A stretch of 64,000 nt of DNA from an uncultured delta proteobacterium (GCA_963760795.1 CAVXEP010000016.1:32001-96000), one strand, 5' to 3'; shown: positions 754-29,953, counted from the first letter of the stretch. Notes: generated from the sequence alone by a model not told the origin. Numbers and translations are program-made.

Positions 754-2040
754 CTAAGATTCTAATTGTCGGATCGCCGGGATGCGCCACGCGACCAGGG
801 CGGTGAGGACGATGACGATGGCGCCCATGATCGCGACCGTTGTTGGCGCGCCGAGGAAGTGCGCCGATGTGCCGGCGAATAGCGCGCCCAGCGGCATGAA
901 GCCGCGGTCGAGCATGTAGAGACTCAACACCCGGCCGCGCAGTTCATCGGGGACGATCATTTGCAGCATGGTGGCGGTGCTGGCGAGGAAAAACATCTGA
1001 AATATACCGACGATTACCAACGTCACCAAAGCCAGCGGAAACCAAGTGATCTGCGAGAACAGGATGATCGCGGCGCCGAGGACGAAAATGCTGCCGACCA
1101 AAAAGCGCCCCTGCCTCTTGATGCGGTTGCCCATCGAGGCCAAGGTCAAAATTGCTATTACGGCGCCGATACCGGGGGCGGCCATCAGCAAGCCCAATCC
1201 TTCCGGACCGATCTTGAGCACGTCCTTTTGAAACACCGGCATGAGCGTCTGGTAGGGCACGGCGAATATCCGCGGCACGTAAGCGAGCGCCATGAGGGCG
1301 AACACCGCCGGCGTCGACCAGACGTAAGCGAAACCCTCTTTGAGATTGGCCAGAGCTGAAGTGTGTCTGGCTTCGGCCCGCTGGGGCGGGACATTCATTC
1401 TATAAATCATCCACAGCACGCCGGCGTAGGCCACAGCTTGGACGAAAAAATTCTCGGCCGCGCCAACCCAGGCGATCAGCGCTCCGCCCAACGCCGGGCC
1501 TAGCACTTTCATCATATTGAAGCCGCCGGAGTTGATCGCCACGGCGTTGGCCAGCTCGTCTTTGGGCACCGAGCTGGGAATCAAACTCATGCGCACCGGC
1601 TCGGTGATGGTCCAAGCGATGCCGGTGATCAGTGTGAAAACAAAAATATGCCAGACATGCAGGTAAGGCGACCAGACCAAGCCGCCGAAGATGACGGCGG
1701 TGGCGATCAGCACCCATTGAGTGCCGATCAAGAGTTTTCTCCGGTCCATGCGATCGGCGGCAACCCCCGCCATCGGTCCGGTGACTAAAAACGGCAGCGC
1801 GCGCAGACCGTTGAGAGCGCCGAGAAGCACCGAATTGCCGGTGAGATCGTAGATCAGCCAGCCCAATGTGACTTGCTGCACCCATTGGCCGGCGCTCATC
1901 ATCACCGTGCCAGTCCAGAGATAACGAAAGTCGGCGTGGCGCAGCGACGAAAAGGTGCGCAAGCGAGCGCGTGCTGGAGTTGCTGTGGTTGCGGTGTCGA
2001 GCGGCGCTGTTAGTTCATCGTCCAAGTGTCTAGTTTCCAA
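754..2040 (-). CDS. MFS transporter (DHA3/MFS_3-like)
   Basis: About 12 hydrophobic segments, motif A GVAADRMDRRK, C-terminal PDELRGRV; start uncertain. Confidence 0.9.
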   Translation of the reverse strand: METRHLDDELTAPLDTATTATPARARLRTFSSLRHADFRYLWTGTVMMSAGQWVQQVTLGWLIYDLTGNSVLLGALNGLRALPFLVTGPMAGVAADRMDRRKLLIGTQWVLIATAVIFGGLVWSPYLHVWHIFVFTLITGIAWTITEPVRMSLIPSSVPKDELANAVAINSGGFNMMKVLGPALGGALIAWVGAAENFFVQAVAYAGVLWMIYRMNVPPQRAEARHTSALANLKEGFAYVWSTPAVFALMALAYVPRIFAVPYQTLMPVFQKDVLKIGPEGLGLLMAAPGIGAVIAILTLASMGNRIKRQGRFLVGSIFVLGAAIILFSQITWFPLALVTLVIVGIFQMFFLASTATMLQMIVPDELRGRVLSLYMLDRGFMPLGALFAGTSAHFLGAPTTVAIMGAIVIVLTALVAWRIPAIRQLES

Positions 2041-2225
2041 AACCGTATAGTATCATGAATTTTAATAAGTTCACTTCGTTCGAGAAAATCATCTCTGCTT
2101 TCCCGACCCTTGCGGGCTCGGCATCGCTCGGCCTTTGCCAAATACATCGGGTTGGGAGCACTCGTGGCTCTCGCTTGCGGCGATGCCACTCCGATGGGTT
2201 CTGTATCGCCTTGGCGGCGATTATT

Positions 2226-3267
2226 TCATTGCAGCGCGTAGAATCGTTTGGCGTTCTCACTGAGGATTTTGCGCTTGGCTTGCTCGGATAAATCCCGGCG
2301 GTGCCAGAACTCGGGGATGTCGACGGCGAATTCGCCGGCTTGGCGTTCGTGGGGGAAGTCGGTCGGGATACATGACATGATCTTCGCCGAGTTCGCGGAC
2401 GACGGCGTCGAGAGTCTTTTCGTCGGTTTCGCAGGTGACATAGATGTTGCCGCGTTTGAAGTATTCGCTCGGTTTGATGCTCAGTGGAAAATGTTTGCGC
2501 TTGCGGTCGATGTGAAACTTTTCGTCCATGCGGTCCATCATGTAGGGAATCCAACCGGCGCCGGCTTCGAGAAAGCCAACTCTCAGCTTGGGAAATAAAT
2601 CGAACACGCCGTCCAGGACCACGCTGGTGAGCTGGATCATCTGCGCCAGCGGATGTTCGAGGGTGTGGATCATCGACATGGTCTGCAAAAAATCGAAGCC
2701 CAAGCCGCGGCTAACGGCGCCGTGCACGGTCAGCGGCACGTTGAGCGCTTCGGCTTCCTTGTAGATCGGGTGAAAGTCTTGGTGGCCGTAGCCTTTGTTG
2801 AGCATCGTCACCGCCGGCAGCAGGCCGGCGACCATGCCGAGTTCTTTGACCGCGCGGCGCAGTTCGCTGGCCGCTTCTTGCGGGTTGTGCACCGGCAGCA
2901 TGGCGACGCCTTTCAAGCGCGGGTCGACTTTGCAGTAGCGATCGGCGAGCCAGTTGTTGTACATGCGCGCGACCACGCATGCCCAATCGGGATCTTGGAT
3001 AAGACCGAAGGAGAGGCCGGCGGTGGGATAGAGCACGGCGGCGCTGATCTGCGAACCATCGATGAACTCGATCCACTCCTTGGCGGAGATGCGCGTGACT
3101 TTATTCAAGCCGCGGACGAAGCCGCGCGGCCAACCGTCGAGGGAGGGAAAGATCGAAAAAACTCCCGAGCGCCGGTGGCCGGTGTAGTCGCCGTCGAAGT
3201 ATTCTTCCAGTTCCGCGTCGGTCTCCAAGACGTGACCGTCGGCGTCTATGACTTCTACTCCGTCCAT
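2226..3267 (-). CDS. Amidohydrolase_2 family metalloenzyme (frameshift near 2365)
   Basis: MDGVEVIDADGH..., LTVHG, FLEAGAGW; C-terminus continues in another frame as (Y)PTDFPHE...KILSENAKRFY; extra C in a CCC run. Confidence 0.9.
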
Positions 3268-3520
3268 CGCGGGCGTTCTCCTGGCAAGAAAATCTGCAGA
3301 GCCCTGGCTTAGCATCCGGGCACAATTTTTGTCAACGCAGGGACGTGCGGCAAATCTATCATGCAAGTGAAAGCAGAATCCAGATTCAACTCGGCGAGAA
3401 TAAACCTGAATTACCGTGTCGGCGAGAAGGACGGTTTAGGGAATCCTGATGTTGCTTGGCGTTGACAGCGCTTGGAAGCGCGTGCTTTAACGGGTCAATC
3501 GTATACTTCGGAGAACGCCG

Positions 3521-3637
3521 GTGATCGACGGTTATCAAATCTATGACGCTGATGCCCACGTCAATGTGGCGCCGCAGATGTGGGAAGATCTGCCCAAGGA
3601 GTTCGCGGTGGCAGAAGCAGAGGATCTTATACAATAA
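3521..3637 (+). pseudogene. Truncated Amidohydrolase_2 N-terminal relic (38 aa)
   Basis: GGAGA RBS then GTG: VIDGYQIYDADAHVNVAPQMWEDLPKEFAVAEAEDLIQ*; matches the N-terminus of the 49099-50258 protein (MLQGYRVFDADAHGSINPSMWEDLP). Confidence 0.8.
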
Positions 3638-3681
3638 TCCGATTCGGCTATTTGGCGAAGTGTGAGGCTGCTTCCTGACTC

Positions 3682-3809
3682 CGTCATTCTCGCGTACGCG
3701 GGAATTCAGGTGACGGACAGTGTCCGTCATACCGTTGAAAAACGGTATCTAGGTTGAGGGGATGGACCCCGGTCGTCACCGGGGTGACGATAGAACGGGA
3801 ATGACGGAT
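3682..3809. repeat. Nested REP/MITE-like palindromic element, copy 1
   Basis: Outer arms CCGTCATT...AATGACGG enclose GTCATACCGTTGAAAAACGGTATC and GGACCCCGGTCGTCACCGGGGTGAC; reverse complement recurs at 19871-19997. Confidence 0.85.
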
Positions 3810-3835
3810 AGGCGGGTGACTTTCAGTGAAACTGA

Positions 3836-4825
3836 ATGAGGTACGTCATGTTGCGTAGAACTAAAGCAGTTCAACTAATCTATCTGCTACCAGCGCTTTG
3901 GATTTTGCTTAGCTCTGTCCAAGCGCCGGCCCAGACTCACGTCAAGATCGGCATCGTCAGTCCGACCTTCGGGCATGCGCCATTTTACGTCGCGCGGGAG
4001 AAGGGATTCTTTAGGGCTGAAGGCTTGGTCGGTGAAGTGATCGTCATGAATCGGGATGACCTGATCTTGCAATCGTTAGTTGCCGACTCGATCCAGTTCG
4101 GCAATATTTCTCCCGGCGCATTTTTCCCGGCAAGGGATCAGGGTCTCACGGATCTCAAGATTATCGCCGGTTCGTTTAACGGCACGACCTATTCGATCAT
4201 TGCCAATGCGAAATTTAAAAGCCTAGAGCAGCTCAAGGGAGCGAAGCTGGCGGTCTCCAGCTTGCAGGCCGGTTCGACGCAAGTTTTGAAATACATCCTT
4301 AAACAGCGTGGTCTGGTTTATCCGCGTGATTATAACTTGATCCGCGCCGGTGGCACGACGCTGCGATGGGCGGCGTTGCAAACGCAGCAAGTTGACGGCG
4401 CGATTTTAGCGGAACCCGTAAGTGTCATCGCGGTGGAGAAGGGTTTCGTCAATTTGGGCGACGCCTATAAGTTGGTACCGGGATATATGCTAGCTGGCGT
4501 ATTCGTCCGCGAAGGGTGGGCGGCGAAGAACAAGGATCTGACACTGCGTTTTCTGCGCGCGTTTCACAACGCGTTAAAGTGGTTACACGACAACCGCGCT
4601 GAGGCGCTCGATCTCTTGCCGAAGATCACCACTCTGCAAAAGCAGTATGTGCAGAGCGCTTGGGAGACTTATACCAAAGCCGTTTGGCCGCGCGACGGAC
4701 GGGCGAGCGCCAAAGGCCTGCAGCTAGTGATCGACATGGTGGTTGAAGAGGGATTGCTCAAGAAGCCGGTGAAGCCCGAGGACGTGATCGATCATTCCTA
4801 CTTGCAGGAGATTGGCGCGCGCTAA
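3836..4825 (+). CDS. ABC-type substrate-binding protein, NMT1/THI5/SsuA-like
   Basis: Signal peptide, APFYVAREKGFFRAEGL, LEQLKGAKLAVSS, C-terminal DVIDHSYL. Confidence 0.9.
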   Translation: MRYVMLRRTKAVQLIYLLPALWILLSSVQAPAQTHVKIGIVSPTFGHAPFYVAREKGFFRAEGLVGEVIVMNRDDLILQSLVADSIQFGNISPGAFFPARDQGLTDLKIIAGSFNGTTYSIIANAKFKSLEQLKGAKLAVSSLQAGSTQVLKYILKQRGLVYPRDYNLIRAGGTTLRWAALQTQQVDGAILAEPVSVIAVEKGFVNLGDAYKLVPGYMLAGVFVREGWAAKNKDLTLRFLRAFHNALKWLHDNRAEALDLLPKITTLQKQYVQSAWETYTKAVWPRDGRASAKGLQLVIDMVVEEGLLKKPVKPEDVIDHSYLQEIGAR

Positions 4826-4830
4826 TTATT

Positions 4831-5013
4831 TGTTCAAGTCGTTCCAATCGTTCAAGCGGTTCCAATCGTTCGGTCGATTTTGACTGTTGTGGCACGTTTG
4901 TATTAAGAGTGGATATGAAAACACGGAGGTGACCATGGAATTGGCGAGGCATCCGGCGCAGAAAATGTGTGGCCGCGTTAGGGTTCAAGGTTCAAAAGTT
5001 CAACGGTTCAAGG
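4831..5013. repeat. Two short-period GTTCAA/GTTCCAATC tandem tracts
   Basis: gttcaagtcgttccaatcgttcaagcggttccaatcgttc (4831-4871) and gggttcaaggttcaaaagttcaacggttcaagg (4981-5013). Confidence 0.75.
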
Positions 5014-5088
5014 TCAGAAATTCAGCTTGGTTTATTCGTGAAAAACATTGTTTACTCCTTTCACCGTCTTGGAGGCTGTGACGCAACT

Positions 5089-5169
5089 GTCATTCCGAGG
5101 CGAAGCCGAGGAATCTCGTCTTCGTAAGTGGCAGACAAGACGAGATCCTTCGCTACACTCAGGATGACA
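5089..5169. repeat. REP-like doublet (GTCATTCCGAG...GAATCTC / GAGATCCTTCG...GATGAC)
   Basis: Inverted arms; related copy at 56449-56528. Confidence 0.75.
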
Positions 5170-5259
5170 GAACTCGGACTTCCGCGCATTGCTCCACAGT
5201 CTCTCTAGGGAGAAACGGTGGGATGGGGCGAGGCTATTTTCCAATCGGAGGGGATCATC

Positions 5260-6343
5260 ATGGGAATCATAGACGCCGATACGCATATCGATGAAACCGA
5301 GGACACTTGGGAGTTCATGACGGGCGACGATCTCAGGTTCAAACCGACGACACAGTACCCCGCCAATCCCGATCCGACCAAAGTTCCCGACCCGTTATTG
5401 GCTGATCGATGGGCGGCGCCAGCTGCGTTTTATCCGCGGCGACGAAGAATCGGGGACGGTGGTGGAATCGCGGGAACTGCTGGATGTCCAAGTCCGGCTC
5501 AAACATATGGACCAGCTCGGCACCGATATTCAAGTCATCTACCCGACGGTTTTTCTCATGGAGGCGACCGAGAAGCCCGAAGTCGCCAGCGCGCTGCGCC
5601 GTAGCTACAACCGCTGGCTTGCCGATCGCTGTGGGCGATCGGCTGGCCGGTTGCGCTGGGTGTGCCTGCCGCCGCTGCATAATATGGACGAGACCGTCAA
5701 AGAGCTGCGCTTCGCCAAAGAGCATGGCGCGTGCGGCGTCTTGAAGAAGGGCGATCGCGAGGCCGACAAATGGATCACCGATCCGTACTTTCTGCCGCTT
5801 TACGCAGAGGCGGAAAAGCTCGACCTGCCGATCTGCATTCATACCGGTTCGGGTATCCCGGATTTTTCGCCGGCGCGGGATTTTTCTCTAGCGCAGTTCT
5901 GGCGCACTAAAGCCGCGGCGGTCAACGGTATCGAGACCTTGATCGTCAACAACATTCCGGCGCAGTTTCCCAAGCTGCGTTTCGGCTGCATCGAAGCGGG
6001 CGCTTCGTGGGTCAACTTTGTCGATTATGACCTGCGCCGGCGGATGAAGTCGCGCACTGGGCGGGTGAGCGTCCTGGGCGGTCCGCCGACGATAATCAAG
6101 AGCAATGTCTACCAAGAAAACCGCATCTACGTCACCTGTCAGGTCGATGAAGATTTGCCGTACATCCTGCAATATGTCGGCGAGGACAATCTGATCGTCG
6201 GCTCCGACTACACGCACCGCGATCCGTCGATGGAGTTGGAGTTTCGTACACTATTGCAGCAACGAGCCGACCGGGGCGAGATTCCAAAGACGGCGGTGGA
6301 GAAGATCCTCTATGATAATCCCAAAGCGTTCTACGGGTTATAG
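5260..6343 (+). CDS. Amidohydrolase_2 family metalloenzyme (frameshift near 5386), tandem paralogue A
   Basis: MGIIDADTHIDE... joins ORF 5459-6343 after removing one base in gttcccgacccg (paralogue reads KLPPARYW); CIHTG, CIEAG, GSDYTHRD. Confidence 0.9.
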
Positions 6344-6454
6344 ATGATTTGACGGCGCCGCCGGGGAACGGGTGGCTAGCTTGCCGCTCTTTAAAAACCC
6401 GCCGATCCGTATTAAGCAATGAAGAAACTAATCCAATCGTAAGGAGAAGCCACC

Positions 6455-7543
6455 GTGCGCATAATTGACGCTGACACACATATCGACGAAACCGATGCCA
6501 CTTGGGAGTTCATGACGAGCGGCGATCTGGCCTACAAGCCGACGACCGCTTATCCATCCAACCCCGATCCGAAACTGCCGCCGGCGCGCTATTGGGTGAT
6601 CGAGGGCAAGCGGCAAGTGCGCTTCATCCGCAGTGACAAGGATTCCGGTACCACCGTTGAGACCCGCGAACTGCTCGACGTCAACGCCCGGCTCAAACAT
6701 ATGGATGAGCTCGGCACCGATATTCAGGTGATTTATCCGACCTTGTTTCTAATGGAAGCGTCGGAGAATCCCGAGGCGAGCACGGCGACGCGGAAAAGCT
6801 ACAATCGCTGGTTGGGCGAGCGTTGCAGTCATTCGGGCGGCCGCCTGCGCTGGGCATGCATGCCGCCGGTGCAGAAAATCGATTCGGTGCTGGAGGAGCT
6901 GACCTGGGCGAAAGAGCATGGCGCCTGCGGCGTCGTGAAAAAAGGCGACCGCGAAGCTGGGAAATATCCCGCCGATCCCTATTTCGAACCGCTTTATGCG
7001 GCGGCGGAAAAACTCGATCTGCCGATCTGCATTCATACCGGCTCCGGCATTCCAGATTTTTCGCCGGCGCGGGAGTTCTCCCATGGCCAGTTTATGCGCA
7101 CCAAAGGGGCGGCGATCAACGGTGTGCTCGGATTGGTCTTGCACAAGATCCCGATGAAGTTCCCCAAGCTGCGCATCGGCTGTATCGAGGCCGGATCCAT
7201 GTGGACGCCGTTCGTGGCTTACGATTTGAAACGGCAGGCGATCAAGCAGCAGGGGCGCGAGTCGGTGGGTGTTCTCGGCGTGCCGCTGATCGATATTTCA
7301 ACCAATGTCTTCAAGGACAACCGGATCTGGGTCACCTGCCAGGTGGACGAGGACTTGCCGCTAATCCTCAAAACCGTCGGCGAGGATAATCTCATGGTCG
7401 GTTCGGACTATACCCACCGTGATCCGTCGATGGAGCTGGAATTTCGCAAAGAGTTGCAAGCCCGCGCCGACAAGGGCGACATCCCGCAGGCGGCGATTCA
7501 GAAAATTCTCTACGACAATCCGAAGGCGTTCTATGCGCTATAG
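6455..7543 (+). CDS. Amidohydrolase_2 family metalloenzyme, tandem paralogue B
   Basis: IIDADTHIDE, LPICIHTGSG, CIEAG, VGSDYTHRD, KILYDNPKAFY; AAGGAG RBS. Confidence 0.93.
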   Translation: MRIIDADTHIDETDATWEFMTSGDLAYKPTTAYPSNPDPKLPPARYWVIEGKRQVRFIRSDKDSGTTVETRELLDVNARLKHMDELGTDIQVIYPTLFLMEASENPEASTATRKSYNRWLGERCSHSGGRLRWACMPPVQKIDSVLEELTWAKEHGACGVVKKGDREAGKYPADPYFEPLYAAAEKLDLPICIHTGSGIPDFSPAREFSHGQFMRTKGAAINGVLGLVLHKIPMKFPKLRIGCIEAGSMWTPFVAYDLKRQAIKQQGRESVGVLGVPLIDISTNVFKDNRIWVTCQVDEDLPLILKTVGEDNLMVGSDYTHRDPSMELEFRKELQARADKGDIPQAAIQKILYDNPKAFYAL

Positions 7544-7572: not shown

Positions 7573-7650
7573 CGTCATGCCGGCGAAAGCCGGCATCCAT
7601 CTTCGCTTCTCCGACAATAACCCTGGATTCCGGCCTGCGCCGGAATGACG
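7573..7650. repeat. REP/RPE-like palindromic doublet
   Basis: CGTCATGCCGGCGAAAGCCGGCATCCA ... TGGATTCCGGCCTGCGCCGGAATGACG. Confidence 0.85.
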
Positions 7651-7744
7651 AAATGAATAAGAGAGCGTATAGCGTATTAAGTTGTGACACAGTGAGGTGC
7701 GGTTGATGTTAACTATGGCAAATTTAACAGGAGGAGGACATTAA

Positions 7745-8296
7745 ATGATTGTTCTCAGCCCGGAAGGGAAAGCGCAGACCTCGGCGGCGAAAATCGCGGG
7801 TATCGCCCAGTTCACCGATCTGCGCGGCAAAGTAGTGGGGCTGCTCGATAACAGCAAACCCAACGCCGACAAGCTGGCGGAGCGTTTCGCGGAATTGTTG
7901 AAAGAAAGATACGGCGTCGCCGGCCTGATCACGCGGCGTAAGCTGACCGCCCAGCAAGGAGCGCCCAAACAGTATCTCGACGAGCTCGCGTCGCAAGCCG
8001 ACTTCGTCATTTGCGGCCTCGGTGATTGAGGCTCCTGCACGTCGTGGAGTGTCCACGACTCACTCGAGATCCAAAAGCGCGGACGGTTCGCGATCACACT
8101 GATCACCCACGCCTTCATCGCATTGGCAAAGTCCGAAAAGGAAGCTTTCGGCGCGCCGGATCATCCGGTGCTGGTCGTGCGGCATCCCATCGGCACGGTC
8201 AAGATCGAAGATGTGAATGAAAAGGCCGACGCGGCGTTCGATCAGTTGGTAAATATTCTGCTTGCGCCCGAGGCGGCGCGAGCGAAGGTCGCCTAG
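7745..8296 (+). CDS. UGSC-family selenoprotein (183 aa, Sec at TGA 8027-8029)
   Basis: AGGAGGAGG RBS; N-half LRGKVVGLLDNSKPNAD...FVICGLGD, then TGA GGC TCC TGC = U-G-S-C; frame stays open for 88 more codons (TSWSVHDSLEIQKRG...PVLVVRHPIG...AKVA*); SECIS-like hairpin 11 nt downstream. Confidence 0.93.
8041..8059 (+). promoter_or_regulatory. Putative bacterial SECIS hairpin
   Basis: GTCGTGGA-GTG-TCCACGAC perfect 8-bp stem with G-containing apical loop, beginning 11 nt after the UGA. Confidence 0.8.
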
Positions 8297-8304
8297 CAAA
8301 GATA

Positions 8305-8335
8305 GTTTCAAGTTTCGGGTTTCGAGTTTCGTGTT
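8305..8335. repeat. 7-bp-period tandem repeat (GTTTCnn)
   Basis: gtttcaagtttcgggtttcgagtttcgtgtt. Confidence 0.6.
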
Positions 8336-8387
8336 GAACCACGGACTCGGAATCCGAGACTTTTTGTTTTGTATCTGTTCCTAAGTT

Positions 8388-8471
8388 CGTCATACCGGCG
8401 AAAGCCGGTATCCATCTTGGTCTTCGGTTCGCCGGCAACAAACCTGGATTCCCGCTTTCGCGGGAATGACG
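8388..8471. repeat. REP/RPE-like palindromic doublet
   Basis: CGTCATACCGGCGAAAGCCGGTATCCA ... TGGATTCCCGCTTTCGCGGGAATGACG. Confidence 0.85.
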
Positions 8472-8510: not shown

Positions 8511-9563
8511 ATGGCAACGGCAGCATTAGCAGCGGAACGAGTCGAAATACCGGATGACCTCTGGGAGGCGCAAGCCTTCTTCGAAGAACAGGGCTGGTCC
8601 GATGGCCTGCCGATCATCCCGCCCACGGAAGCGCGGGTCGCGCAAATGCTGGCGGCGACCAAGCGCAAAGCGGATGAAGTGATCGGCGCGGTGCCGCCAC
8701 GCTGGGCGCAAGCGACGGTGGAAAAAATCGCTATCAACGGGGTCATGGCCGGCTGCAAGCCTGAGTATATGCCGACGCTGATCGCCGCGGTGGAAGCGAT
8801 CACCGATCCCAAGTTGAATCTCTACGCCCTGCAAGCCACCACCGGCGGGCCGGCGGTGATGATCATCATCAACGGGCCGGTGCGCCAACAACTGAACGTC
8901 AACGGCGGTTCCAACGCCCTTGGCGAAGGCTGGCGCGCCAACGCCACCATCGGCCGCTTCGTGCAATTAGTGAAGCGCAATATCGGCGGCTCGTATCCGG
9001 GCTCCACTTGCAAAGCCACGCTAGGGTGGCCGGGAAAATATTCCATCTGCGTCGGCGAAAACGAGGAAGCGAGTCCCTGGGAGCCGCTCCATGTCGAGCG
9101 CGGTTTCAAAGCCGATGAGAGCACGGTGACGGCGATCAGCGCGGATGCGTCGATCCGCGCGTCGGACCTGGACAGCTCGAAAGCGGAAGGCGTGCTGATC
9201 AATTTCGCGCAAAAAATGGAAGGCCCTTCCGGGCCTGAGGCGATCATGGTCGTCTGCCCGGAGCATGCCAAGATCATCGCCGACGACGGCTTCAGTAAGA
9301 AGGACGTGCAGAAGTTCATTTGGGAGCGCGCCGCGTACCGGATGAAAGATTTGCCCGACGAAACCTTCTTCCAGCGGGTCAAGCGGCGATCCGATCTTAA
9401 ACTGACTCGCGACAGCATCATTCCGGTCACCGACAAGCCCGAAGATATTCTCGTCATCGTCGCCGGCGGCGATGGCTCGCAGTCGCAGTATATTCACGTC
9501 TGGGGGCAGAGCACGCCGGAAGGCGGTTCGACGCGGTCGGTGACTAAAGTTATAAAAGATTAA
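8511..9563 (+). CDS. Conserved uncharacterised UGSC-partner protein (DGLP..PPT family)
   Basis: Motifs GWSDGLPIIPPTEARV, ATVEKIAINGVMAGCKPEY, RANATIGR, GENEEASPWEPLHVERGF, DILVIVAGG; family I recognise as the usual neighbour of UGSC proteins. Confidence 0.85.
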   Translation: MATAALAAERVEIPDDLWEAQAFFEEQGWSDGLPIIPPTEARVAQMLAATKRKADEVIGAVPPRWAQATVEKIAINGVMAGCKPEYMPTLIAAVEAITDPKLNLYALQATTGGPAVMIIINGPVRQQLNVNGGSNALGEGWRANATIGRFVQLVKRNIGGSYPGSTCKATLGWPGKYSICVGENEEASPWEPLHVERGFKADESTVTAISADASIRASDLDSSKAEGVLINFAQKMEGPSGPEAIMVVCPEHAKIIADDGFSKKDVQKFIWERAAYRMKDLPDETFFQRVKRRSDLKLTRDSIIPVTDKPEDILVIVAGGDGSQSQYIHVWGQSTPEGGSTRSVTKVIKD

Positions 9564-9681: not shown

Positions 9682-10671
9682 ATGTTCATTCGCCTAATCA
9701 CTCTCTTCGCCGTTCTTTTACTTATTCTTTCTTTGACAGTTACGCCCACCTTCGCCGCCGACAAGCTGCGCATCGGTTACTCCGGCGCTACGATCACCAA
9801 CTCGATGTTGTGGGTGACTCACGAAGGCCGGCTGTTCGAAAAGAACGGCATCGACGCCGAAGTTCTCTACTTGCAGACCACTTTGGGGCAGACCGCGTTG
9901 ATCGCCGGCGAGATTCAGATGTGTGTCTACTCGGCCAGCTTGCTCACGCCGGCGCGTTTGCAGGGCGCCGATGTGGTCATGCTGCTGAGCTTTCTGCATA
10001 AGCCGATTTATCGTCTGGTGGTCAAGCCGGAGATTCGCTCGGTTGCCGATCTCAGAGGCAAACGGGTAGGAGTTACGCGTTTCGGCACGGTGAGCGACTG
10101 GACGACGCGCTTGTTATTAGCGCGCCTCGGGCTCGACGCGGAAAAAGACGTGATCCTGGTGCAAAGCGGCGATGTGCCGGTACTGGTTAATTCGCTTGCC
10201 GTGGGAAAATCCATCGACGCCGCGATCATGCAGCCGCCTTATGACAAAAAACTCGCGGCGATGGGTATGCGTGTTCTCTTGAACATGCAGGAGATGGACA
10301 TCGTCTTGCAGCAGACCGGCCTCAACACCACGCAAAAGTTCATCGCGCGAAATCCAGACATCGTTAGGCGGGTAGTGAAATCGATGATCGACGGCATCCA
10401 TTTCATGCGCAACAACCCCGCCGTCGCCAAACGCGCCATCGGCAAACACATGCAGATCAAAGACGAGCGCGACCTGGAAGATTCGTATCAACTCCTACGC
10501 AGTTTCATCCAACCCAAGCCCTATCCGAATCTCGAAGGCTTCAAACCGATCTTCGAGGAAGCCGGCAAACGTTTGCCCGCGGCCAAGACCGCCAACGCGA
10601 AGGATTTCGTCGACACGCGGTTTATCGAGGAGCTAGATAAGTCAGGGTATATCGACGGGCTGTATAAATAA
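9682..10671 (+). CDS. ABC-type substrate-binding protein, NMT1/THI5-like
   Basis: Signal peptide ending TFA-AD, KLRIGYSG, DLRGKRVGVTRFGT, C-terminal DKSGYIDGLYK. Confidence 0.9.
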   Translation: MFIRLITLFAVLLLILSLTVTPTFAADKLRIGYSGATITNSMLWVTHEGRLFEKNGIDAEVLYLQTTLGQTALIAGEIQMCVYSASLLTPARLQGADVVMLLSFLHKPIYRLVVKPEIRSVADLRGKRVGVTRFGTVSDWTTRLLLARLGLDAEKDVILVQSGDVPVLVNSLAVGKSIDAAIMQPPYDKKLAAMGMRVLLNMQEMDIVLQQTGLNTTQKFIARNPDIVRRVVKSMIDGIHFMRNNPAVAKRAIGKHMQIKDERDLEDSYQLLRSFIQPKPYPNLEGFKPIFEEAGKRLPAAKTANAKDFVDTRFIEELDKSGYIDGLYK

Positions 10672-26058: not shown

Positions 26059-26964
26059 GTGACAGTCGAAAGTCCATTGGCAATTGCATTGAATCCCATA
26101 CAAGGCGCCGAGCCGGTGGGCTATTGGCGCGTTGTTTGGCGGCGCTTCAAACAGCACCGGGTTGCCTACGTCGGCTTTTTTTTCTTTGTTACTTTATTAG
26201 TCGCGGTGATCGTCGGTCCCTATCTGGTTCCATTTGAACTCGACCAGGTGTCATTGGCCGAGCGCATGCAGACGCCGTCGGCCCGCCATTGGCTCGGCAC
26301 CGATGAGCTCGGGCGCGACACCTGGGTGCGCATCATGCATGGCGGCCGGGTTTCGCTGACCGTCGGATTGGCGGTGGCGCTGAGTACCGTTCTCATCGGC
26401 GGATTGATCGGCATTCTCGCCGGTTATGTCGGTGGCGCGCTCGACAATGCTTTGATGCGTTTGGTCGATACGATTTACACGATCCCGCGCATCGTCTTGC
26501 TGCTGGTCCTGTCGAAATTAGCCGGGCCTGGCTTGCTCAACATTATCGTCATTCTCGTCGCCCTGGAGTGGACCAATGCGGCGCGCTTGGCGCGCAGCGC
26601 CGTGCTGTCTTTTCGCGAGCAAGAGTTCGTCTTGGCGGCCCAATGCCTCGGCGCATCGCGCTGGCGCGTCATGCTGCGCCACCTGCTGCCCAACGCCCTC
26701 GGTCCGTTGATCGTTTCGGCGACGCTCGACGCCGGCGCGGCGATCCGCGCCGAGACCACGCTGAGCTTTCTCGGCCTCGGTATCCAGCCGCCGACGCCGA
26801 GCTGGGGCAACTTGCTCACCAACGCCGCGACCAATATTTTTATCGCGCCGTTGCAAGTATTCCTGCCCGGGCTGTTTATCTTTTTCGCTCTGATGAGTTT
26901 TAACTTGCTCGGCGACGCCCTGCGCGATGCCCTCGATCCGAAGATGTCGAAGAGTCGGGGATGA
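26059..26964 (+). CDS. Peptide ABC permease DppC/OppC-like
   Basis: HWLGTDELGRD, GGRVSL, EFVLAAQCLGAS, LSFLGLGIQPPTPSWG, GDALRDALDP. Confidence 0.93.
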   Translation: MTVESPLAIALNPIQGAEPVGYWRVVWRRFKQHRVAYVGFFFFVTLLVAVIVGPYLVPFELDQVSLAERMQTPSARHWLGTDELGRDTWVRIMHGGRVSLTVGLAVALSTVLIGGLIGILAGYVGGALDNALMRLVDTIYTIPRIVLLLVLSKLAGPGLLNIIVILVALEWTNAARLARSAVLSFREQEFVLAAQCLGASRWRVMLRHLLPNALGPLIVSATLDAGAAIRAETTLSFLGLGIQPPTPSWGNLLTNAATNIFIAPLQVFLPGLFIFFALMSFNLLGDALRDALDPKMSKSRG

Positions 26965-27045
26965 TGGGTCGAGGATTGACGATCGCGATCCCCGATCGGC
27001 GATTTTCGATTTTCCATCCTCGATCTTCTACCCTCCATCCTCGAC
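26963..27045. repeat. 7-bp-period inverted tandem tract between convergent genes
   Basis: gatgggtcgaggattgacgatcg ... cgattttcgattttccatcctcgatcttctaccctccatcctcga. Confidence 0.65.
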
Positions 27046-27051
27046 CCTGTT

Positions 27052-28340
27052 TTATAACGGTCTGACCGCGTCCCAAGGTTTGATTAGCATTGCCGTGAGA
27101 ATGGTGCCGAGCACCAGCAAGCCACAAAGTCCCCATAGTGTTGCCGCGTAGCTTTGACTGCGGTCGTAGATTGCGCCGGCGACGACCGGGCCGATGACGC
27201 CGCCCCAGGTGTAGAAGAACGCCATGGTGCCGCGGATGGTGGCGAAGTATTTACGGCCGAAGAAGTCGCCGATGGTGGCCCAGACGACGGGAAAGGAGGC
27301 ATCGATGACAGTGAAGAGAATCGTGAATAGCCAAAGCGGCCAGAGTCCGCCGCCCCAGATCAGAAACAGTATTGACCCCGCCGCGGCCAACATGCAGCCG
27401 GCAAGCAGCTTGGGACGATTCATCATATCGGCTAGAGGGCCGATGACGTAGTGGGCGGCCCAGTTCAGAAATGCGAAAGCAGCGAGTAAGTAAGCGCCAT
27501 GTTCCTGGCTCAAACCCTTCCAGACCATGATCGGTATGAAGTGCACACTGATGGTGCTGTAGGCCGCCACGCGCACGGTCATGCCGATGGTGAATAACCA
27601 GAAGACTCTTGGTCTTCATCGCTTGACGCACGCTGGGGTCTTGGTCGGCGGCTTTCTCCTCCGAACCTTTTTCCGACTTGCCGCTGTTGCTTGCCGCCGT
27701 TCGCGGCGCGTCGCCGTCGGGCAGGAGCCCCATGCTTTCGGGCGATGGTCGCACGCCGATGCCGATGGGGATGCCGATAACTAAAAATAGCACTCCCGCG
27801 ATGATGGCGCCCCAACGCCAGCCCCAGTTTTGCACGGCGATGGCGAGTAGCGGCGTCAAGAGCGTGCCGCCGATGGGCACGGCCGAACTGATCACCGTCA
27901 TGGCGCGGGCGCGGTAACGAATAAACCAGGTGTTGCCCACCGCCATGGAAGCGTGGACGAAGCCGGGCGTGAACGACAGCGAGATGACACCGAGATAGAC
28001 GATGAGAAAATTTGTGTAGTTGTCGACCCAGGCGAGCATGATGTATCCCAAGCCGCAGAGGATGGTCGCGACGAGAATAATCGGCCGGGGACCGAAACGG
28101 TCGATGAGATAACCGACGAAGGGACCTTCGAGAGCACCCTCGGCGCGGGCGAGGGAAAATGCCAGCGAGGTCGCGGCGCGGCTCAAGCCCAAATCTTGGC
28201 TGAGCGGTAAAAAGAAAACGGTGAAGCCGTAATTGTGCAGCCCGCCGCCGAGCACTCGCAGCGCCGAGACCAGGCCGACCATGCGCCAACCGATAAAAGT
28301 CTGGGATAAAAATTGCCGAAGAGTTTTCAGGGTGATGCCT
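27052..28340 (-). CDS. MFS transporter (OFA/MCT-like; frameshift near 27605; start uncertain)
   Basis: YGFTVFFLPL, GYLIDRFGPR, NTWFIRYRARAM, PESMGLLPDG; C-half GDFFGRKYFATIRG...GAIYDRSQSY. Confidence 0.85.
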
Positions 28341-29861: not shown

Positions 29862-29953
29862 CGTCATGCCGGCGCAGGCCGGCATCCATCTTTGCTCCAT
29901 CGATCGCCTCGGTGCCACTATGAAATTATGGATTCCGGCTTCCGCCGGAATGA
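29862..29953. repeat. REP/RPE-like palindromic doublet
   Basis: CGTCATGCCGGCGCAGGCCGGCATCCA ... TGGATTCCGGCTTCCGCCGGAATGA. Confidence 0.8.

Follow-up and report, generated by a model that had tools for sequence, protein, structure and literature searches.

A probable UGSC-family selenoprotein gene with an in-frame UGA, and its partner gene, in an uncultured delta proteobacterium

Proteins of the UGSC family are mentioned in selenoproteome and trace-element surveys and in reviews. A UGSC-containing protein figures in the selenoproteome surveys by Zhang and Gladyshev of 2007 and 2008 (PMC1976440, PMC2398784), the earlier paper presenting it as a selenoprotein of unknown function. The Global Ocean Sampling (GOS) survey ranks UGSC with the selenoprotein families most abundant in environmental samples, with 255 selenocysteine (Sec) forms against 21 cysteine (Cys) forms, and describes a conserved domain, 'Unknown_1', fused to it (PMC2398784). 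Reviews group UGSC with thioredoxin (Trx)-like redox proteins (PMC2398784, PMC13188914), and in the reviews of 2022 (PMC9312934) and 2026 (PMC13188914) it still stands among the selenoprotein families with largely uncharacterised functions. The present work concerns positions 7745-8296 of a 64,000-nucleotide stretch of DNA (hereafter the window, meaning the whole stretch) from an uncultured delta proteobacterium (GCA_963760795.1 CAVXEP010000016.1:32001-96000), where an open reading frame (ORF) of 94 codons meets an apparent stop, TGA. This stop is very probably a Sec codon inside one gene of the UGSC family, and we hold with high confidence that 7745-8296 is best explained as a single gene for a selenoprotein of 183 residues.

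How does the locus compare with the family as described? The predicted protein resembles it in passing both curated models, in its U-G-S-C motif, in its length and in having Cys-containing homologues, and carries no trait that would place it outside. Judged by its sequence, the gene belongs to a family already catalogued, its novelty being that of a further member and not of a new family. The signal expected to accompany such a codon is equally familiar: the selenocysteine insertion sequence (SECIS) of bacteria is a hairpin bound by SelB that follows directly on the UGA, that of Escherichia coli fdhF being an example.

A reading frame across an in-frame TGA

Read directly from the sequence, the frame opens with ATG at 7745-7747, meets the in-frame TGA at 8027-8029 and closes with TAG at 8294-8296. 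Translation of the TGA as selenocysteine (U) yields 183 residues with U95; the codons around it are ATT TGC GGC CTC GGT GAT TGA GGC TCC TGC ACG TCG TGG, and the motif GD-U-GSC occupies residues 93-98, followed by TSW. The table-11 ORF list holds a 94-residue ORF at 7745-8029, and the sole ORF of the same frame 3' of the TGA has 57 residues and a TTG start (8123-8296). The first-pass annotation of this DNA had claimed a 94-residue ORF whose frame stays open past the TGA to the TAG ending at 8296, with a second half that lacks an obvious start of its own; direct reading and the translation of TGA as U bear out the former, and the distance to the TTG at 8123, the nearest same-frame start, agrees with the latter.

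Both curated models recognise the read-through protein. It scores 131.4 bits (cut-off 125) with NF041046, 'UGSC family (seleno)protein', and 149.8 bits (cut-off 25) with PF24696, 'UGSC', the latter match forming a single stretch from residue 3 to residue 173 of 183, unbroken across the TGA. The existence of NF041046, which we take to be the model by which the Prokaryotic Genome Annotation Pipeline (PGAP) of NCBI names the UGSC family in genome annotation, makes the earlier description of this selenoprotein as 'hidden' an overstatement, since the family is named there; what stands of that description is that generic gene callers truncate the gene. In alignment A1 the Sec column is occupied by Cys (7) or Trp (10) in all 17 database homologues, and S97 and C98 are invariant, in keeping with the U/C-G-S-C motif of the family. 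The Trp forms derive from short contigs and most likely represent TGA called as Trp by gene callers. Homologues with Cys aligned to the TGA, which the first-pass annotation had proposed to look for, are thus at hand in the seven sequences of A1 and in a TGC-bearing locus described below, and the homologues extend past the TGA; its statement that a UGSC family with Cys homologues had already been reported is likewise confirmed by the two models and by the papers of 2007-2008.

The TGA is kept with great constancy among relatives. A search of 61 genomes of the same order found the family in 56 of them, with 122 match rows, 119 of which contain exactly one TGA; the three exceptions are two contig-end fragments that fall short of the Sec column and one 56-residue fragment with three stops. 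When the unpublished genomes G004 and G035 (5 rows) are left out, one TGA is present in 114 of 117 rows and the family in 54 of 59 genomes. Across many phyla, 83 UGSC domains from 80 loci have TGA in the Sec column in 78 cases and TGC in one (L087, from a Sphingomonas metagenome-assembled genome, MAG); two have neither and two do not cover the column. If the TGA were a real stop, only a 94-residue fragment would be made and the downstream frame would be the decaying remnant of a pseudogene or split gene. Such a reading would suit the table-11 ORF that ends at 8029, the database gene calls that often end at GLGD (P0012, for example) and the normal use of TGA as a stop in this genome. It is nevertheless very improbable, given a Pfam match that continues without a break to residue 173, a downstream hairpin under selection, the presence of Sec machinery, and a single TGA retained in the order and in 78 of the 81 column-covering domains across phyla, which is unlike the behaviour of a remnant.

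Might the TGA instead be a sequencing or assembly error for TGC or TGT in an ordinary Cys protein? Natural Cys forms do exist, as the seven homologues in A1 and the Sphingomonas locus attest. Reads of four soil or rhizosphere runs, comprising two DNA studies and two RNA libraries, list no other letter at 8027-8029, and contigs cover the codon in X1, X2 and X15, the last of these an RNA library. The TGC or TGT that the first-pass annotation had named as grounds for abandoning its proposal was accordingly not seen in the contigs of the two independent DNA studies and the one RNA library. With TGA also present at the Sec codon in 29 of 29 close relatives examined, an error is hardly credible.

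A reassigned code (table 4 or 25), in which TGA would be read as Trp or Gly, could account for the Trp found in the column in 10 of the 17 database homologues. We consider it extremely improbable. TGA is an ordinary stop here and not a reassigned sense codon, because it ends 9 of the 39 long frames of the window; family matches hold one TGA each, not many; and true Cys forms align at the column, where Trp would not replace a redox Cys. The genome, moreover, possesses a tRNA for selenocysteine (tRNA-Sec) with anticodon TCA (76.7 bits) together with selA (612 bits), selB (410 bits) and selD (379 bits), all above curated cut-offs, so that the selA, selB, selC and selD genes that the first-pass annotation had asked for are accounted for. 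The assembly in question, of metagenomic origin, consists of 35 contigs and is 88.9% complete with 6.15% contamination. Its selD, selB and selA genes are grouped on contig C11 at 1,948-7,514, and selD itself contains one in-frame TGA, in the Gly-rich loop (...SKAAG-U-AAKLGPGDL...).

Among 76 Sec domains the motif is UGSC in 61, UGAC in 6, UGGC in 5, UGSS in 2, UGTS in 1 and UGTC in 1; by these counts Sec is more constant than the Cys at +3 in the aligned UGSC domains. At two loci (L086, 8052-8586, and L121, 10147-10675) degenerate second copies of the UGSC type carry neither Sec nor Cys in the redox column (GEGGNP... and GMSGGS...); they may be inactive or structural paralogues. The codon 5' of the UGA is GAT in 27 of the 27 sequences with Asp at this position and never GAC, the Asp nine codons upstream using both; in a wider set of sequences both GAT and GAC occur just 5' of the UGA. 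The use of GAT there may reflect a preference, peculiar to one lineage, for a certain context of the Sec codon.

The hairpin behind the UGA

Folding predicts a perfect 8-bp hairpin, GUCGUGGA-GUG-UCCACGAC, 11 nt past the UGA. It is like a bacterial SECIS in this distance, in lying within the coding sequence and in having G-U in a small apical loop. It is unlike the fdhF element, which has a bulged U, in its perfect stem with a 3-nt loop, and unlike bacterial SECIS elements generally in the absence of a match in Rfam and in a sequence that is nearly fixed across phyla.

Is there a trace of the hairpin at the nucleotide level, beyond what the encoded peptide would impose? The peptide GSCTSWS is common to 29 distinct sequences, one of which comes from the unpublished G004; in all of them codons +4 to +10 are fixed as ACG TCG TGG AGT RTC CAC GAC without a single synonymous change, the sole variation in the hairpin codons being an exchange of Val and Ile in the loop. 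Outside the hairpin, each invariant residue is encoded by two to four codons: D-9 is encoded by GAT in 18 and GAC in 11 sequences, G+1 by four codons, S+2 by three, C+3 by two and T+23 by four. In a gapless alignment of 101 sequences (the window and 100 others; A3) the eight stem pairs form in 88.6% of cells, versus 20-46% when the 3' arm is slid by one to three columns. Changes on both sides of a pair number 52 cells versus 15.3 +/- 3.1 in shuffles, none of the 500 shuffles reaching 52; at pair 27-33, 68 of the sequences have G-C and 27 have C-G, and concerted amino-acid replacements preserve the stem, as in TSWSVHD to TSGSVLD. The apical loop stands at +22 in 78 of 102 distinct sequences, as GUG (57), GUA (18) or GUU (3).

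The contigs add a further observation. A spike of contig depth does not extend past the bin 8002-8068, loose contig ends occur on either side, before 8024/8027 and after 8059, and many otherwise unrelated contigs match only the UGA and the hairpin, at about 8024-8059, which fits a constraint acting at the nucleotide level. On this comparative evidence the predicted RNA hairpin 3' of the UGA is under selection of its own.

Several points weigh against the selenoprotein reading of the locus. We infer, and do not read, TGA behind the Trp of the database homologues. The genes of the Sec machinery belong to contigs C11 and C13 and the window to C16, their linkage resting on binning. No family in Rfam matched 7700-8400 at E up to 10. 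The fold energy of the 66-nt stretch is no better than that of shuffles (z = -0.16), so that it is sequence comparison, and not energy, that supports the hairpin; related sequences can beat shuffles without any structure, and the slid controls and the synonymous-site pattern are stronger arguments for the hairpin than the shuffles. These points noted, we retain the reading of 7745-8296 as one selenoprotein gene. In the manner established for bacteria, SelB carrying Sec-tRNA(Sec) would recognise the hairpin on the translating mRNA and insert selenocysteine at U95, an expectation that we regard as almost certain.

The partner protein and the possible chemistry of the pair

Downstream of the UGSC gene lies a gene for a protein that we call the partner. 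Its start is likely ATG 8511, because most of the listed homologues have 350 residues; the alternative ATG 8466, inside a palindromic repeat, would give 365. The partner has no Pfam match at E up to 0.001 and no NCBIfam match. Its family comprises 5,564 clusters at 50% identity (E up to 1e-3). Of 8,000 candidates scored in a further search, 6,453 were hits; in the 120 matches listed, none contains a Pfam domain and every source name is 'hypothetical protein'. An alignment of 65 sequences has P49, A95, G96, G137, R164, E198 and G334 invariant and C97 and C195 nearly so (365-residue numbering). We think that the 'Unknown_1' domain mentioned in the GOS survey (PMC2398784) is probably the partner family.

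The structural model of the partner is of good quality by its own scores (predicted local distance difference test, pLDDT, 93.4; predicted template modelling score, pTM, 0.91). Foldseek returned 0 matches for it at E up to 0.001, VIA-align reached at best Z 6.0 over 88 residues with no row at Z >= 8, its rows lying mainly at residues 196-354, and a sequence-profile search of the PDB with the partner alignment gave nothing better than E 0.54. Class I fumarate hydratases (E 1.6e-3 and above, TM 0.13-0.28), followed by cyanuric acid hydrolases (CyuA), were too weak as candidates and were left unused. None of these searches brought up a structural relative that convinces. An Atlas search returned only the partner's own family, automatically named 'Thioredoxin family protein' with no common Pfam domain, which we treat as a lead only.

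The association of the two proteins is widespread. Of 32 loci in the order, 31 have the partner next to UGSC or fused with it, the exception being a contig that ends 225 nt past UGSC; in the fused class the frame is open for 511-560 codons. When one genome per species was scanned, at least 594 relatives were found among the first 600 pattern matches, and the best 80 loci were used for context. They belong to Binatia, Methylomirabilota, Burkholderiales, Dehalococcoidia, Poribacteria, Vicinamibacteria, Entotheonella, Streptomyces, Sphingomonas, a Robertmurraya isolate and other groups. The closest relatives among the matches listed are Binatia-type MAGs (83-84% identity), which makes this the probable lineage of the window. 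Both tblastn and the profile search place UGSC beside the partner or fused with it in 66 of these 80 loci, always on the same strand; of the 83 domains, 54 lie upstream of the partner and 29 downstream. Within the examined flanks UGSC was not found in the other 14 loci, in three of which (two Vicinamibacterales and one Anaerolineaceae) the partner carries an N-terminal AhpC-TSA/Redoxin fusion with CATC, CATC or CPTC. The long N-terminal extensions of the partner ORF at L118 and L125 have no Pfam match; that of L118 looks like a spurious high-GC ORF extension and was set aside. Clustering of all ORFs within 6 kb at the 80 loci found no third conserved gene, the partner itself appearing in 79. 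The commonest neighbours are TctC (15 loci), CoA-transferase III (10), SDR (10), enoyl-CoA hydratase (9) and MmgE/PrpD (7), followed by a thiamine pyrophosphate (TPP) enzyme (6), SBP_bac_5 (6), NMT1 (5), amidase (5) and Amidohydro_2 (4). These genes hint at the metabolism of carboxylates or coenzyme A (CoA) esters; none is universal. The ten neighbour clusters that were annotated include no thioredoxin reductase.

It could be argued that UGSC works on its own, as an antioxidant or thiol oxidoreductase of general use, and that its adjacency to the 350-residue protein is meaningless, as its grouping with Trx-like redox proteins in two reviews (PMC2398784, PMC13188914), the 14 partner loci with no UGSC nearby and the weak terminator-like site between the two genes might suggest. 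Chance adjacency would have had to arise again and again in many phyla (66 of 80 loci), with either gene first and always on one strand. It would also have to accommodate the in-frame fusions, the lack of any other conserved neighbour and the occurrence of a Trx-fold CxxC domain in the same position at three loci, and we judge such independence to be quite unlikely.

Further copies of both genes are present in the same genome, which holds two more UGSC copies, each with one TGA. One of these (L021, contig C7, 150,395-151,594, minus strand) is a 551-residue in-frame fusion with a divergent GH-U-STC motif and a C-terminal partner domain, to which the partner of the window is 39% identical (E 2e-44); it has a hairpin of its own, different in sequence and at the same offset past the UGA, and is adjoined by a gene for a TctC-family binding protein (by sequence reading, with only the cluster representative confirmed). 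The other (L019, contig C13, about 26,680-28,230, minus strand) has AD-U-GSC followed by a partner domain in a shifted frame, 46% identical to that of the window (E 6e-75). Relatives have a 540-560-codon in-frame fusion in its place, and L019 has either become a pseudogene by frameshift or been misassembled; at L024 and L048 in related genomes the frame of the partner is broken in a similar way. A fourth partner homologue (contig C2, 200,608-201,645, minus strand; 45% identity) has no UGSC match nearby and one TAA inside the match, and may be a stand-alone or broken copy.

What could the pair do? The AlphaFold2 model of UGSC built on A1 (pLDDT 88, pTM 0.84) consists of five alternating beta-alpha units in a flavodoxin-like arrangement. 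The rows shown by Foldseek and VIA-align are of flavodoxin, CheY, B12-binding and Rossmann type, none of which stands out (best Z 10.9; best Foldseek E 6.5e-5, TM up to 0.52), and a Pfam scan at E up to 0.1 found PF24696 only and no thioredoxin-type, Grd or Prd family. The Trx-like fold suggested for the family in PMC2398784 differs from this alternating beta-alpha model and is not supported by it, although a fold missing from the rows is not thereby excluded. In the model U95 caps the N-terminus of helix 96-111 right after strand 87-93, with C98 one turn along. The modelled local geometry resembles that of a CxxC redox centre, and because of it a selenenylsulfide/selenol-thiol couple at U95/C98 is likely.

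Trx-fold CxxC or UxxC oxidoreductases (Trx, Prx/AhpC-TSA, Redoxin) are similar in that a beta strand leads into a helix whose N-terminus bears the redox dyad. In the three partner fusions the place of UGSC is also taken by an AhpC-TSA/Redoxin domain with CxxC, and UGSC therefore probably works like such a domain. They are dissimilar in that UGSC has no match to a thioredoxin-type family in the Pfam scan and has five beta-alpha units.

We lean towards the view that UGSC is a dedicated redox module for a cysteine centre or substrate adduct on a catalytic partner, because across phyla the two occur side by side or fused, whichever comes first, have no other conserved neighbour and admit a Trx-fold CxxC domain as a stand-in for UGSC. 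U95 and C98 would form a selenol/thiol redox centre, with which UGSC would reduce (or reoxidise) the cysteine centre or substrate adduct on the partner, the latter acting as the catalytic subunit. Two observations speak against such a relay: the 14 partner loci without UGSC in the examined flanks, and the absence of the Cys at +3 in 3 of the 76 Sec domains (UGSS twice, UGTS once), so that an internal Se-S couple cannot be universal and is arguably not essential.

The retention of Sec where that Cys has been lost would also be expected if the pair were of the glycine or proline reductase type, in which Sec would attack a partner-bound substrate, a selenoether would form and Cys would resolve it, in place of a simple disulfide relay. 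GrdA, GrdB and PrdB resemble UGSC as small selenoproteins or domains with Sec and a nearby Cys that work with a larger catalytic protein, and in the GOS survey the UxxC motif is listed for PrdB as it is for UGSC (PMC2398784). The recurrent neighbours of carboxylate and CoA-ester catabolism (TctC, CoA-transferase III, enoyl-CoA hydratase and MmgE/PrpD) would suit this chemistry as well. Pfam scans, however, detected no sequence relationship of GrdA, GrdB or PrdB to UGSC (no Grd or Prd match at E up to 0.1) or to the partner (no match at E up to 0.001), and no accessory neighbour is universal. The lineages and neighbours of UGSC are not known to be those of Stickland fermenters. A plain CxxC Trx-fold domain can, moreover, replace UGSC, which fits electron transfer better than covalent catalysis, and a mechanism of the reductase type appears unlikely.

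Surroundings of the pair and implications

The features of the locus are collected in Table 1. A promoter and terminator scan found nothing above chance, and contigs from RNA libraries cover only parts of the UGSC and partner genes. The pair stands among two or three Amidohydro_2 genes, two genes for NMT1/THI5-like binding proteins and an MFS transporter gene (2257-7543 and 9682-10671), and this mix of genes recurs near the UGSC-partner module in some other genomes.

Table 1. Features at and around the UGSC and partner genes (window coordinates)
Feature	Position	Strand	Basis
Palindromic repeat ATTCCGGC-CTGC-GCCGGAAT, upstream of the UGSC gene	7627..7646	.	3 copies in the window vs 0 expected
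Shine-Dalgarno-like GGAGGAGG, 7 nt 5' of the ATG	7730..7737	+	direct sequence reading
UGSC-family selenoprotein gene (predicted), 183 aa, stop TAG 8294-8296	7745..8296	+	translation; NF041046; PF24696
In-frame TGA as predicted selenocysteine U95, motif GD-U-G-S-C	8027..8029	+	Cys/TGA in aligned homologues; four runs without another letter
SECIS-type hairpin (candidate), stem 8041-8048 with 8052-8059, loop GUG 8049-8051	8041..8059	+	fold, synonymous sites, covariation
Weak terminator-like hairpin and T-run between the UGSC and partner genes	8346..8358	+	not above chance: 4 sites vs 3.4 expected
Second copy of the palindromic repeat, overlapping the partner's upstream ATG 8466	8448..8467	.	repeat search
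Partner gene, 350 aa from ATG 8511 (likely start)	8511..9563	+	translation; homology to UGSC-fused domains; homologue length

The palindromic repeat follows the pattern ATTCCSGC-N3-5-GCSGGAAT, usually followed by GACG, and its copies bracket the UGSC gene. A third copy lies at 29932-29951, and an imperfect inverted copy near 8389-8415. Because soil contigs reach a depth of 130-1,580 at the repeat spots, versus about 10 beside them, and contain joints between copies, the repeat looks like an abundant interspersed element of the repetitive extragenic palindromic (REP) kind.

For the annotation of the window, the analysis implies that 7745-8296 should be entered as one selenoprotein gene and not as a 94-residue ORF followed by non-coding DNA. 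The interest that remains lies in the chemistry of the UGSC-partner pair, whose linkage is general and not specific to this locus. We offer as a tentative proposal that the pair is a widespread Sec-dependent enzyme of an undescribed kind, in which the partner might act on a small carboxylate or CoA-ester and the flavodoxin-like UGSC might move reducing equivalents, some lineages using a CxxC Trx-fold domain instead. The pairing of UGSC with a very large uncatalogued family, together with its replacement by a CxxC domain, would provide a concrete route to the biochemistry of the UGSC family.

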